DNA of 64,000 bases, from positions 128,001 to 192,000 of the forward strand of contig CAWFGE010000022.1 in assembly GCA_963815195.1 (NCBI GenBank), read 5' to 3'. The DNA comes from an uncultured Planctomycetaceae bacterium (GTDB taxonomy: Bacteria; Planctomycetota; Planctomycetia; Planctomycetales; Planctomycetaceae). The notes under the pieces are model-generated. The model saw only the letters and a list, made by a program, of their open reading frames with translations. It was not told where the DNA came from and searched no databases. The position numbers were made by a program, and so were the translations under genes. Shown here piece after piece: positions 53,416-56,902 of this stretch (position 1 is its first letter; every line of letters begins with the position of its first letter).

Positions 53416-55079
53416 CGTTCAACAAGATTCCCAAGCCGACCGCTTGCGGTCGGAGTCCGACGCCAAGGCGTCGGCTTGGGGCGTTGCGCGATTTGCATCC
53501 TCCTTGCGAAACTTCGCGAGCCGGGTGCATCGGTGCGAGCGGGGCGTGCTGTCGATCACCTCGGTGTTTGCGCTGTTTGTGTTTACGATTTTGCTGATCA
53601 TGATCGTCAACGTCGCGACGCATCTGGACGACAAGATCAACCGCCAGAACGCGGCCGACGCCTCGGCGTACTCCGGCGGCGTGGTCCTCGCGCGGGGCAT
53701 GAACACGATCAGCTACACGAACCATCTGCTGACGGACGTGTTCGCGGTCACGGCATTTTTGCGCGAGGGCCGAAATCGCCAATCCGAACAGATCGCCCCG
53801 GAGATCCTCGACGAATGGGAACGCACCGGGCAGCGGTTCACCGCAGTCTGAGTTTCAAAAGTTCCAATTGCTCGGCCAGGCGATCCTCAAAAAGTCCGCC
53901 CGAAAGCCTTTGGGCAAAGATCGGCGGCTGGTGAAGGCGTTCGGCAACCTGACGGCGGCGGCGTCCGATTTTGCGCTGCCGGTGTTCGAGTACATCCTGC
54001 GAGGCGATTCGCCGATGGGTCAAAATCAGCCGGGCGCCAAACCCGCGGCCAATCCAGAGGGCGGGTTGATCCCGCAGTTTCAGCGGCAGGTGATCCGCAT
54101 GATTCCCGCACTCGCGCAGCAGGTGACGAACGACATCGCCTGGCGGCACGGGCTCGCGAACCGCGACCTCAAAAACCTGCCCGCACCGCCCCGCGCGGAG
54201 CAGAACGGCCGCGGCCCTCAAGCGGGGATGCTCTGGCGAATGTCCGCGCGGCCGGCGGGCTTTCCCGACGAACAAGACCCGCTCGCGCGGACGCTGCCGA
54301 TCGTCGATCCCAGCCCGATGGCCGCCGACTTCCACGGCGTTCCCAACGCTGCCGAGTATTTTAAAATGGCGACGCTCCAGCGGGAGGAGTTGGCCCGGCA
54401 TTATTTGGAGATTTGGACCGGGGACAAATTGCAGCTTTTCGACCGCACGGCGCAGATGTCGCGGTTCAGCCATCTCTGGCGAATCTTCACCTGTGCGGAG
54501 TTGGAGCATTTGCTCAACGAGGAATATCCGCAAACGAACCTGCCGATGATGATCCGCTTCACCGACGCGGGCGGCGATTGGGACACGCTTCGCCAAAAAG
54601 GCCGCCCGCGGGACATCAACCGCAACCTGGAGCGGGATTTTCAGTTTTTGGGCGTGGTGTATCGCGATCATCAAAAAGAAAACGGGCCGGGGCTGTTTAA
54701 GAACCCGCTGAAAAAGCGATCCGACGCCCAGACATTCGCGCAGATCTCGCTGTTTCTGCCCCGGCCGAGGCGGGTGCTGTCGAACGGGCAGCAGAGTCCA
54801 CAACAGAGCCTGGGCGGGACGTTCGGGTTTTCGAGCAACATCGCGTTGCCTCCGCCGCCGGCTCCGGGCAGCATCCGCCCCGAGGAGGAGCGTTGGCCGA
54901 GGGAGAATTGGCCTTGGCATTGGGATCTGCTCAACCAGAACTGGACGGTGAAGATCGTCCCCGCCACCGCGGCCGCCGTTCCCAGAATCCTGCAAACCCC
55001 GCCGCCCGGCGGCAGCCTGCGCCCGCCCAACCTGGGAGCCGCGGGCATTCAGCAGCTCAACCGCGTGAACACGCATTGA
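53396..55079 (+). CDS. TadG-like protein (frameshift ~53850)
   Basis: ERGVLS plus TM, QNAADASAYSG, ARGMNTISYTN; continues in ORF 53868-55079; start uncertain. Confidence 0.75.
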
Positions 55080-55108
55080 GCGGTGTGCCTGTCAGCCAGT
55101 ACTTCAAT

Positions 55109-55222
55109 TGCCCCAACGGGGCAAAACAAAGCCAGCCTGGGGCGAAGCAACGCGGCGACAGCCGTAAGCGGAGCCCCAGGTTCGTGACGGGAAACCAATC
55201 TAGGCCCTGAAGGGGCCAGACA
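55109..55222. repeat. REP-like composite palindrome
   Basis: GCCCCAACGGGGC, CCTGGGGC...GCCCCAGG, GGCCCTGAAGGGGCC; related GCCCCGTTGGGGC near 27905. Confidence 0.6.
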
Positions 55223-55226
55223 AATC

Positions 55227-55852
55227 CTAGGGTTGATTTTGAGGCTGGATTGCCGTCGATTCTGTCGAATCGATGTTTCCCTCATCGACGAACATATCGA
55301 TTTTCAAATAAGGTTCCCCGGATTCAGGATCGCAGGGCAATTTTGTCGAGGCAAGCTGGAGCAAGTTCAATTGATTGAAGAGAACTTCATTAAACGTTTT
55401 GACGACGCCCCGCGCAATCGATTCATCATTTTCCGCCAATTCCGCCATGCGGCAAAGTTCGCGATGAATCGCAAAGGCGTGAGACTTGATGCGATCCAAA
55501 CCGGTGAGACCTCGATTCGAAAATCCCACGTGCAAGTCCCGATCCATCGCCCGCGCGTAGGCTTCCAATTCGCTGATTCGCAGCTCGCCGTCCTCGCCGT
55601 TCTCGATCTTGGACACTCGGCTCTGCGAACAATCGAGTTGTTCCGCGATCTCCGCTTGGGAAATCCCCTTCGCCGCGCGCAACGCATGCAAAGCCTTCAC
55701 CAGCCGCGCTTCGAAATTTGTTCTTCGAGTGCCCGGTTGAAAGCCTCATCGTCCGAGATGTCGCGAATCATCTCCCGAACCGAGTTGTACTGCGGATTTT
55801 CAGAAATTGAGTTGTCGGCCGCGGTAATCTGACCGCGGAAACGTTGAGCCAT
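55227..55852 (-). CDS. XRE-family HTH protein, HigA-like antitoxin (frameshift ~55705)
   Basis: LRAAKGISQAEIAEQLDCSQSRVSKIENG; N-terminal part MAQRFRGQITAADN...YNSVREMIRD lies in the adjacent frame. Confidence 0.8.
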
Positions 55853-56106
55853 TGCGATTCTCCTGTGACCCGGAGCGGGTGCTTCAATGGGGCCGCGGTC
55901 ATTCAACCGCGGAAAGTTGCAGTCGTTAAGGCCCTGCACAGCCTTTGTCTTGAGATCCAACCGTCAACCACCAATCCAACACTTGGTGGTTGGTCGTTAT
56001 GAGCTTCAACCGGCCGTGGTCATTCAACCGCGGAAACAATTTTGTGGATGCCGAAGCTCTTCATGGCATCCTGTTCAATGGGGCCGCGGTTTTTGGATAA
56101 GAAAAG
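55807..56106 (-). CRISPR. degenerate cas-less CRISPR-like mini-array (4 repeats, 3 spacers)
   Basis: + strand repeats: 55807-55842 (partial, GGCCGCGGTAATCTGACCGCGGAAAC), 55881-55916 GCTTCAATGGGGCCGCGGTCATTCAACCGCGGAAAG, 56003-56037, 56072-56106 (partial, TTCAATGGGGCCGCGGT); spacers 38, 86 and 34 nt; minus strand gives a hairpin plus 3' ATTGAAGC. Confidence 0.75.
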
Positions 56107-56121
56107 TGCGTTCAGCCGCCA

Positions 56122-56517
56122 TTATTCTTCCAACGACTCATCCGATTTTTCCTGCACTTCGGAAGCTTTCTCCGCTAACAAGGAATCGACAAAGTGTTTA
56201 CAGAATCGGATGTCGTCGGATTGGCTGTTTTTGTCGCCCAACGTGATCAAATGCAAAGTTTCTGATTCCTCGTCCGGATAAATGTAGAGCCGGAATTCTT
56301 TAAGGTGGGATCCTTTTCCCTTTTGGTCGATCGCCAAAACCCCAGACGGTTCGGGATGAATAAATCCTCGGTGGATTTGCCCGGAGGACGCGCCGGCCTC
56401 GAGGCATTTGAAAAATGTGTCCAAGTTGTCAAAAACATTCTGCAACTCGCGAGAATGTTTCTTCTGGTGCTTTTTCACCCGTTTTTCAATATCGGGCGTG
56501 GGCGACAACTTCCACAT
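56122..56517 (-). CDS. RelE/HigB-like toxin (addiction-module killer type)
   Basis: 131 aa, basic N-terminus, RLYIY...LITLGDKNSQSDDI; upstream of the XRE gene. Confidence 0.65.
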   Translation of the reverse strand: MWKLSPTPDIEKRVKKHQKKHSRELQNVFDNLDTFFKCLEAGASSGQIHRGFIHPEPSGVLAIDQKGKGSHLKEFRLYIYPDEESETLHLITLGDKNSQSDDIRFCKHFVDSLLAEKASEVQEKSDESLEE

Positions 56518-56520
56518 GGG

Positions 56521-56549
56521 ATTATATCATAGAGGAATAGTTTCGGCAA
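56521..56549 (-). promoter_or_regulatory. putative sigma70 promoter of the toxin operon
   Basis: TTGCCG-17 nt-TATAAT with overlapping TATGAT just before the ATG; no RBS, possibly leaderless. Confidence 0.5.
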
Positions 56550-56655
56550 TAAAAACACCGAAATCTCCAAAGATTATTCTTTTTTGGAATATGTTGTCAA
56601 TGACTGATGGATTGTAATAATCCCCGAAGAACCCATCTCAGCAGGAATATCTGCC

Positions 56656-56902
56656 ATGTCCAAGCCAACCTTCCCGCGGCGTTTTTCAACCGTAGCGGAT
56701 TTTGAACTGCTGACAGGCGGCCGGTCCTTCGATGTGGTCCAGGTTGCCCCTGAAATTCATAATCCTTAAAACTCCCCAAGAGATTGCCCCCGGCGATGCG
56801 GAACTCATCATCCGTGTTGAAGATGAGGTGATTCATCGGCAGATTGCTCTGCCAAATGGATCAACCCCAACAATGCGCCGAGTCCCCATCCAACGTTATT
56901 AA
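56656..56902 (+). CDS. small hypothetical protein (frameshift ~56753), absent from the ORF track
   Basis: GCAGGA RBS; MSKPTFPRRFSTVADFELLTGGRSFDVVQVAPE / FIILKTPQEIAPGDAELIIRVEDEVIHRQIALPNG...*. Confidence 0.55.

Follow-up and report, generated by a model that had tools for sequence, protein, structure and literature searches.

The described systems closest to the locus reported here are orphan or degenerate CRISPR arrays, HigBA toxin-antitoxin modules, CreTA modules and the RNA anti-CRISPRs (Racrs) of phages. We analyzed a stretch of 64,000 nucleotides (nt) of DNA from an uncultured Planctomycetaceae bacterium (GCA_963815195.1, contig CAWFGE010000022.1, positions 128,001 to 192,000), referred to below as the window, in which a 274-nt CRISPR array remnant (55817-56090) lies between a toxin gene and its predicted antitoxin gene. 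Both components of the locus are ordinary ones, namely a HigBA-type module and an orphan CRISPR remnant, and what is unusual is the placement. With a probability of roughly 0.78, we regard the remnant as a neutral relic, that is, an array fragment that would have been inserted into a spacer of approximately 40 nt before this species and its sister species split. A thin search of the literature turned up no report of a CRISPR array separating the genes for a protein toxin and its antitoxin.

The locus resembles orphan or degenerate CRISPR arrays in its repeat, which differs at 1 of 36 positions from the arrays elsewhere in the genome, is nearly identical to the array of another genome of the family (G257), and consists of 36 nt with a stem of 7-8 base pairs (bp), 4 nt and the handle ATTGAAGC. 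In contrast to such arrays, it is a fragment that has one intact repeat and uneven spacers and lacks a leader, cas genes to match it were not found in the genome, and it lies inside an operon, between translationally linked genes, and not in an intergenic island. With HigBA modules such as those of Streptococcus pneumoniae (6af4) and Mycobacterium tuberculosis (HigB1, 7awk), it shares the toxin-first gene order, the RelE/ParE fold of the toxin and an antitoxin with HTH_3/HTH_37 domains, and the two genes are adjacent in its homologs. It differs from them in that the toxin falls outside every Pfam and NCBIfam toxin family, the antitoxin is predicted to hold the toxin by an N-terminal extension of approximately 45 residues ahead of the helix-turn-helix (HTH) domain, and a CRISPR remnant parts the genes in this genome.

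CreTA modules are located beside their own cas operon. As outlined in PMC9458426 and PMC8501985, they comprise an RNA toxin and an antitoxin resembling a CRISPR RNA (crRNA) that guides Cascade to the toxin promoter; CreTA is also covered in a review (PMC12737573). The feature shared with our locus is the presence of ectopic degenerate CRISPR repeats adjoining a toxin gene. In contrast to CreTA, both partners here are proteins and no cognate cas genes were found. When the spacers of the locus were compared with the promoter and operon region (55001-56900) outside themselves, the longest exact matches were 7-9 nt and none reached 10 nt, so a CreTA-like design is ruled out. The Racrs of phages, in the account excerpted from PMC10651486, are likewise repeat-like hairpins outside arrays, whereas the present element is chromosomal, is common to the sister species and comprises several array units with spacers.

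Organization of the array remnant

The source assembly (G000) has 8.87 Mb in 25 contigs and is 94.6% complete. Feature coordinates are positions in the window, and all features of the operon are on the minus strand. In minus-strand order, the locus consists of two promoter-like sites, the toxin open reading frame (ORF), 31 nt, repeat D, 34 nt, repeat C, 86 nt, repeat B, 38 nt and repeat A with the antitoxin ORFs. An earlier reading of the window, made from its letters alone (the sequence-only reading), had reported four hairpin repeats of 35-36 nt here, co-oriented with both genes. The repeats are in that place, and their crRNA sense is the minus strand, the direction of both genes; only two of them are full length, namely one intact copy of 36 nt (B) and one degenerate copy of 35 nt (C), and the other two are partial, with 26 nt (A) and 19 nt (D). 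In 100 shuffles, 0 matches were obtained to the unit of 36 nt at 55881-55916, which is hence no chance match. The spacings between the repeats are uneven (34, 86, and 38 nt), as in an array fragment and not a regular array.

Repeat B (55881..55916), the sole intact copy, reads CTTTCC...ATTGAAGC and has 1 mismatch in 36 positions to the genome consensus GTTTCCGCGGTTGAATGACCGCGGCCCCATTGAAGC. Its predicted fold, ....((((((((....))))))))............ with a free energy (dG) of -13.5 kcal/mol, is an 8-bp stem followed by 4 unpaired nt and the 8-nt handle ATTGAAGC. Rfam gave a weak match of repeat B to CRISPR-DR16 (21.7 bits, under the gathering score of 35). Repeat A (55817..55842) is the 5' 26 nt of the repeat; it retains the stem, carries 4 loop substitutions and lies within the extended antitoxin frame described below, and 0 of the 10 positions beyond it match the repeat. 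Repeat C (56003..56037) has 3 substitutions and a 1-nt deletion, and a C.A mismatch breaks its canonical stem, its fold being no better than those of shuffles (z -0.78). Of the repeat, copy D (56072..56090) retains just the last 19 nt at the 3' end (positions 18-36), and its handle carries 2 substitutions; the stem is absent, and RNA folding formed no structure. A canonical hairpin plus handle is expected from repeat B alone among the four copies.

The 34-nt spacer between D and C (56038..56071) folds as a stable hairpin (dG -12.7 kcal/mol, z -3.9). The 86-nt interval between C and B (55917..56002) exceeds the length of one spacer and forms a 10-bp hairpin (dG -27.7 kcal/mol, z -2.1). For CRISPR spacers, the hairpins of these two intervals are unusually stable. 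The 38-nt spacer between B and A (55843..55880) now holds an AGGAG motif and the ATG (55850-55852) of the extended antitoxin frame. No protospacer for the spacers of the locus was found in its own genome beyond chance matches of 14-16 nt, and the spacers of all three mini-arrays of the genome gave only chance-level matches to it (14-20 nt), with no self-targeting.

On the toxin-gene side, the first repeat of the remnant is truncated and abutted by the toxin gene, and no leader is present. The 31 nt between the toxin stop and this repeat scrap (56091..56121) are read, from the spacings in homologs, as the toxin-side rest of the original spacer between the two genes. Upstream of the toxin start, two sigma-70-like promoter candidates (56521..56600) were found by consensus match only: TTGACA-16-AATAAT at 56600-56573, with 11 of 12 consensus positions, and TTGCCG-17-TATAAT at 56549-56521, with 10 of 12 and a TG. 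No promoter-like or terminator-like site was found on the minus strand inside the remnant. The locus is chromosomal, amid housekeeping genes, and its right flank is syntenic with the sister species. Among the DNA contigs of three metagenome runs, no listed contig spanned the whole stretch, and the array-toxin junction was neither confirmed nor denied.

The flanking genes as a toxin-antitoxin pair

The gene at 56122..56517 encodes a 131-residue protein predicted, from its structural model and the matches to it, to be a toxin of the RelE/ParE superfamily with a HigB-like fold, in an unnamed family. Curated families of this sort of toxin are Gp49/HigB, ParE_toxin and YafQ in Pfam. The protein matched 0 Pfam families at E <= 1 and 0 NCBIfam families, 0 of 46 aligned members of its family matched a Pfam toxin family, and a profile search of PDB sequences at E <= 10 returned nothing relevant. 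All 95 of its homologs lack Pfam domains and informative names. The closest of them (P0001-P0005) share 82-96% identity by BLASTP, or 78-86% for the three that are in the alignment, and all 12 family-invariant residues are retained in the window toxin.

The AlphaFold model of the toxin had a predicted local distance difference test score (pLDDT) of 90.8, and its top Foldseek matches were all RelE, YafQ, YoeB or HigB (E 2e-3 to 3e-2). With VIA-align, HigB-type toxins were matched at Z scores of 11.8, 11.2 and 10.6, and 35 chains had Z >= 8. The best match was 6af4_A (Z 11.8; root-mean-square deviation, 2.7; 106 residues aligned), and further matches included M. tuberculosis HigB1 (7awk, Z 10.6) and ribosome-bound RelE (4v7k, Z 9.8). 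All 50 of the 50 listed entries were RelE/ParE-type toxins or contained that domain. The label of RelE/HigB-like gene given to it by the sequence-only reading agrees with this fold.

Seven homologous toxin loci were compared: three were located among 400 sampled genomes of the phylum, three lie on metagenome contigs and one is in a metagenome-assembled genome; the metagenome and genome scans recovered only toxin relatives of 42-50% identity. An XRE-type gene lies directly 3' of the toxin gene in 6 of the 7 loci, at -44 to approximately +21 nt, and the seventh sequence ends 98 nt past the toxin gene. The antitoxins of these homologs have 179-213 residues and share a conserved segment of approximately 35-45 residues (…YNNV.EM..D.S.D..F.K…) ahead of the HTH domain. 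In the window, 314 nt separate the stop of the toxin gene from the ancestral start of the antitoxin, compared with at most approximately 21 nt in the homologs, and the excess of 274 nt corresponds to 55817-56090. The separated arrangement is the derived state. Recurrence of the repeats between homologous toxin and XRE genes was not observed; neither the repeat nor the handle motif was present in any of the 7 loci.

A complex of the window toxin (chain 1) with the antitoxin of the sister species G256 (chain 2) was modeled. It scored 0.85 compared with 0.00 for the best control; when solved complexes were scored, 116 of 157 attained the mark, as did 2 of 215 mismatched pairs. The runs shared at least 97% of their contacts, and the partner pLDDT was at least 80. 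The predicted interface involves antitoxin residues 4-48, that is, the N-terminal segment. This pass may partly reflect likeness to known structures because HigBA complexes have already been solved. Together, the fold, the adjacency in 6 of 7 loci and the complex model predict that the flanking genes form one toxin-antitoxin pair. The XRE partner suggested by the sequence-only reading is supported in so far as the pairing is concerned; the antitoxin is longer than was thought and includes the ORF at 55697-55852, which runs through repeat A.

The antitoxin gene is present as two ORFs on the minus strand. The first (55697..55852), of 51 residues, is the N-terminal, predicted toxin-binding part and aligns with residues 1-50 of full-length antitoxins in G256, G306, G554 and other genomes. 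The second (55227..55700), of 157 residues with a GTG start, contains the XRE-type HTH domain and the C-terminal part; it matches the Pfam families HTH_3 (E 6.7e-12), HTH_31 and HTH_37 and has 84% identity to the G256 antitoxin. The stop codon of the first overlaps the GTG of the second as GTGA, and both tile onto full-length antitoxins. The split results from a 1-nt deletion at 55703..55705 relative to G256 and to a metagenome contig: a contig from run X1 (151 nt, depth 3) is identical over 55596-55745 save for an extra G behind 55705, with which the frame is as in G256. Either strain variation or an error in the assembly may account for the frameshift. We treat the antitoxin as one gene, the state of which in this strain is uncertain. 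Many other genes of the assembly are likewise found in adjacent ORF pieces, including those for an alpha-amylase, HsdR, IstA/IstB and Cas1, around the mini-array on contig C7 (L009), at the I-MYXAN locus on contig C3 (L017) and elsewhere; they are either common pseudogenes or assembly indel errors, which bears on the trust to be placed in the antitoxin frameshift.

At the ancestral start position of the antitoxin (55805-55807), the codon is now ATT, and the preceding GAGGA has been lost. Upstream and in frame, the ATG at 55850-55852 behind the AGGAG in the 38-nt spacer heads a frame that reads through repeat A. Judging from this arrangement, the upstream ATG may now be used as the antitoxin start.

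Repeat family and cas gene content

The repeat occurs in the genome at two true mini-arrays, the window remnant and one solitary diverged copy, and at no other site. The mini-array at C7:38884-39265 has 5 full copies and a sixth truncated by an IS21-family element, and that at C15:142238-142634 has 6 identical full copies; no cas genes were found within 10 kb of either. When either half of the repeat was searched with up to 2 mismatches, matches were found solely in the three mini-arrays and once at C21:220650-220685. The repeat is therefore not a member of a dispersed repetitive extragenic palindromic (REP) family, an outcome that the sequence-only reading had named as refuting its proposal and that we reject on this copy distribution.

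The solitary unit (C21:220650-220685, L011:9650-9685) reads TTCTCCGCGGCGAAACCGCCGCGGCCCCATTGAAGC; it matches the repeat exactly in the stem and in the 3' half of 18 nt and has a different loop. It lies 16 nt 5' of a 298-residue ORF beginning MWCTKCQ..., and approximately 230 unrelated bases stand in its place at the syntenic site of G256. The IS21-family element (IstA/IstB) that interrupts the leader-side repeat of the C7 mini-array is itself split by a serine recombinase gene, and at least 8 contigs carry this composite element, whole or in part, at 95-99.9% identity. The neighbors of the C15 mini-array are a NOV_C-domain fragment, a truncated copy of the IS21 composite and a gene for a 484-residue TIR-domain protein.

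In a sample of 300 other genomes of this family, two contained the repeat with at most 3 mismatches, one of them being G257. In G257, contig C329 carries genes for Cas3g (E 3.8e-220), Csx17/Cas8g1 (1e-196), Csb1/Cas7g (1.1e-21) and Csb2 (1.2e-39), followed by approximately 550 nt and then an array whose repeat differs from that of G000 at 2-5 of 36 bases. In the biochemical study PMC9638904, cleavage by Csb2 is reported to fall 4 nt 3' of a 7-bp stem, with an 8-nt handle remaining, and the 7-8-bp stem, 4 nt and 8-nt handle of repeat B agree with that published substrate. Judging from the G257 array beside type I-G cas genes and from the RNA anatomy, the type I-G (I-U) assignment already made in the sequence-only reading holds. 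No similarity to a G257-like leader was found beside any of the three mini-arrays of G000.

Units of the same kind were also observed elsewhere. In G130, a further species of the family, a degenerate orphan mini-array with the same repeat (C226:1240-1420, L025/L036) has one good, one truncated and one eroded copy. Its neighbors are, on one side, a gene of unknown function close to the C-terminus of a recombinase and, on the other, a large gene for an aspartate/glycine-rich repeat protein. In IMG/VR viral contigs, 5 stretches carry the same CCGCGG stem and the CCCCATTGAAGC handle with different loops. Three of these (L060, L063, and L064) are solitary units, one (L061) is a match at a contig end, and one (L062) holds 8 units arranged as a mini-array. 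These units are similar to repeat decoys or mini-arrays described for phages.

No cas genes were found in the window, as had been reported: 0 of its 86 ORFs of at least 200 residues matched a Cas family in Pfam at E <= 1e-6, and no match to Cas1, Csb2 or Cas6 was found on its contig. In a tblastn search of the whole assembly with the G257 proteins, no Csx17, Csb1 or Csb2 was detected at E <= 0.01, and Cas3g gave only weak, helicase-level matches to the Cas3 of two I-MYXAN loci. The Csb2 model TIGR02165, which matched G257 as a positive control and was silent in 14 of 14 control genomes, had no match in G000, G256 or G130. The genome-wide search for a cognate cas locus, which the sequence-only reading had called for, thus returned none, and the arrays with this repeat that it returned were the two orphan mini-arrays. 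With no type I-G cas genes in the assembly, there is therefore nothing cognate to process the repeats.

Cas1 was found at three places only, on C18, C14 and C3, which belong to two type I-MYXAN loci (C18 and the partly broken C3) and one type III-D locus (C14). The arrays of these loci have repeats unrelated to that of the window. Three other Cas6-class genes are present, two of them Cmx6 and one a PF10040 Cas6 at C14:91246-91572 in the III-D locus. The III-D locus (C14:80000-103358, L013) encodes Csx10, Csx19, Csx7 and Cas10 with a 49-repeat array, and a reverse transcriptase gene of the group-II-intron type adjoins its Cas1 gene. Of the I-MYXAN loci (C18:30-15000, L015, and C3:7-12000, L017), one has cas1 in three pieces and an IS4 insertion. 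A further orphan array at C14:28738-29420 (L012), with 11 units of a 29-nt repeat, lies amid insertion sequence elements.

Comparison with the sister species

Within the genome collection compared, the genus is represented by just one further species, G256, whose flanks of the locus are 11-15% divergent from those of G000. Its antitoxin is intact, with 193 residues, and starts at its own ATG, 9 nt past repeat A and behind GAGGA. The junction of antitoxin and repeat is shared: in G256, repeat A is present in diverged form, next to it lies another spacer, of 19 nt, and then comes a repeat ending …GGGGCCGCGGTC, the same cut as that of repeat D in the window. Past this scrap, approximately 577 nt are unrelated to the 547 nt of the window that hold the toxin gene, and homology restarts at window position 56638. 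No toxin homolog was found in G256 with the window toxin as the query, which found the gene in four genomes elsewhere, and G256 contained no repeat within 3 mismatches.

An assembly artefact was rejected as an explanation of the locus, since the independent G256 assembly has the same antitoxin-repeat junction. Insertion of a toxin-antitoxin pair into an array was also rejected, since homologs of the two partners stand side by side at other loci and the array piece is situated between the partners. Because the homology between G000 and G256 breaks exactly inside a repeat, there is a remote possibility that the gene beside a conserved antitoxin was swapped by breakage and joining at CRISPR repeats.

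The replacement segment of G256 (L049:2269-2733, G256:C40) contains a 154-residue ORF with no Pfam match and one further repeat scrap, GGCTTCAATGGGGC. The left neighbor of the antitoxin gene also differs between G000 and G256.

Origin and possible functions of the remnant

A neutral relic, which the sequence-only reading had kept as its fallback, is the explanation favored by the evidence. A HigBA-type operon, with the toxin followed by an N-terminally extended XRE antitoxin, would have received a piece of a type I-G array in its short intergenic spacer. The piece runs from position 18 of one repeat to position 26 of another and thus comprises an integral number of repeat-spacer units and an overlap of 9 nt between its ends, ACCGCGGCC. 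This shape fits an array segment that was looped out by recombination between repeats and re-inserted elsewhere, and we infer that the insertion may have occurred in this manner. It would be older than the split of G000 and G256 and would have been decaying since, with one repeat still intact. The remnant is probably transcribed along with the operon, from the toxin promoter, and would form a long and structured spacer; co-transcription is expected because no promoter-like or terminator-like site lies inside it. In cis, the insertion would have lengthened the gap from the toxin stop to the antitoxin start from approximately 40 to 314 nt and led to the loss of the old ribosome site and ATG of the antitoxin, for which the ATG with AGGAG in the last spacer would have taken over. 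The remnant most likely has no CRISPR-linked function now.

Several observations weigh against this explanation. Repeat B is nearly perfect (35/36) despite the 11-15% divergence of the flanks; its preservation could reflect constraint, gene conversion from the other arrays or later re-acquisition, and the numbers are too small to decide among them. The operon may be fully functional with the remnant inside, as the toxin keeps its invariant residues and the new start has a good ribosome site, and the hairpins may play a role in cis. The three resident Cas6-class genes are a further point. The identical repeats of the orphan mini-arrays (11 full copies) suggest a recent presence of type I-G, and a cas locus may reside on an unassembled piece or a plasmid, given an assembly that is 94.6% complete in 25 contigs.

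Among the alternatives, a Cas-independent co-option survives best, and we still consider it unlikely. According to this explanation, the hairpins and the new start form an RNA spacer in cis that tunes mRNA stability or the ratio of toxin to antitoxin translation, much as REP hairpins in operons do. Repeats A and B and both folded spacers are indeed stable (dG -12.7 to -27.7 kcal/mol, z -2.1 to -3.9), the lost antitoxin start and ribosome site have been replaced by an in-frame ATG with AGGAG, and no family residue of the toxin has been lost. On the other hand, the arrangement is unconserved beyond the genus; in G256, the corresponding spacer is 19 nt long compared with 38 in the window, and the antitoxin starts from an ATG of its own just past repeat A. 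Moreover, by a simple calculation, the 19 extra open codons are expected by chance in approximately 40% of cases.

The proposal made in the sequence-only reading was that Csb2 or another Cas6-type enzyme, acting in trans, cuts the operon mRNA at the repeats, which would tie the toxin-antitoxin balance to CRISPR processing and make the locus an addiction or back-up module. Repeat B is compatible with this idea, being intact, co-oriented and built exactly as the Csb2 substrate outlined in PMC9638904, and a single transcript is plausible in view of the lack of internal promoter-like or terminator-like sites. The two arrays with perfect repeats suggest that type I-G was present recently in this incompletely assembled genome, and metagenome contigs with the same repeat heading many different spacers also hold pieces identical to the locus. 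Against it stands the fact that the enzyme was found neither by tblastn nor with TIGR02165, and that Csx17 and Csb1 were missing as well, G257 serving as the positive control. An addiction module would not be expected to leave an intact toxin in a genome lacking the type I-G genes, as is the case here. Only 1 of the 4 repeat copies could be cut, the repeats occur in 0 of the 7 homologous loci, and G256 has lost the toxin and retains only repeat scraps, with no repeat within 3 mismatches and no Csb2 match. Two of the outcomes that the sequence-only reading had itself named as refuting were therefore observed, namely that no cognate Csb2 was found and that the architecture was seen in no other homolog. 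Cleavage in trans is thus very unlikely to set the toxin-antitoxin balance at this locus. A historical form of the same idea, in which Csb2 once cut the toxin-antitoxin mRNA and, after cas loss, G256 dropped the toxin and G000 rewired the antitoxin start, also appears highly improbable to us.

Finally, a working mini-array supplying crRNAs to the resident III-D or I-MYXAN systems, or a repeat decoy like the solitary-repeat RNA anti-CRISPRs of phages, is extremely improbable. In its favor, three Cas6-class genes are present, viral contigs hold units with the same stem and handle (5 stretches), and Racrs are known in phages from the account in PMC10651486. Against it, the repeats of the resident arrays are unrelated, the spacings are uneven (34, 86, and 38 nt) with no G257-like leader and no protospacer in the own genome, and the locus is chromosomal amid housekeeping genes with a right flank syntenic with G256.

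If the relic explanation is true, the locus provides a clean natural example of an array piece that left its own locus and landed in an operon, and it shows an operon coping with the insertion, with the antitoxin gaining a new start codon and reading through a repeat. It also serves as a caution against assigning functions to ectopic repeats. As by-products, the analysis yielded an unnamed family of toxins of predicted RelE/HigB fold (95 homologs, no Pfam family), with an XRE antitoxin carrying a predicted toxin-holding N-terminal extension, and three orphan type I-G mini-arrays plus a solitary repeat kept in an assembly without type I-G genes. The parts most worthy of further attention are this toxin-antitoxin family and the orphan type I-G arrays and solitary units, including those on viral contigs.

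Other features near the locus

A short dispersed element (55096-55182) lies between a 403-residue ORF and the end of the antitoxin gene. It matches C12:236492-236549 at 88% identity and C8:102767-102837 at 86%.

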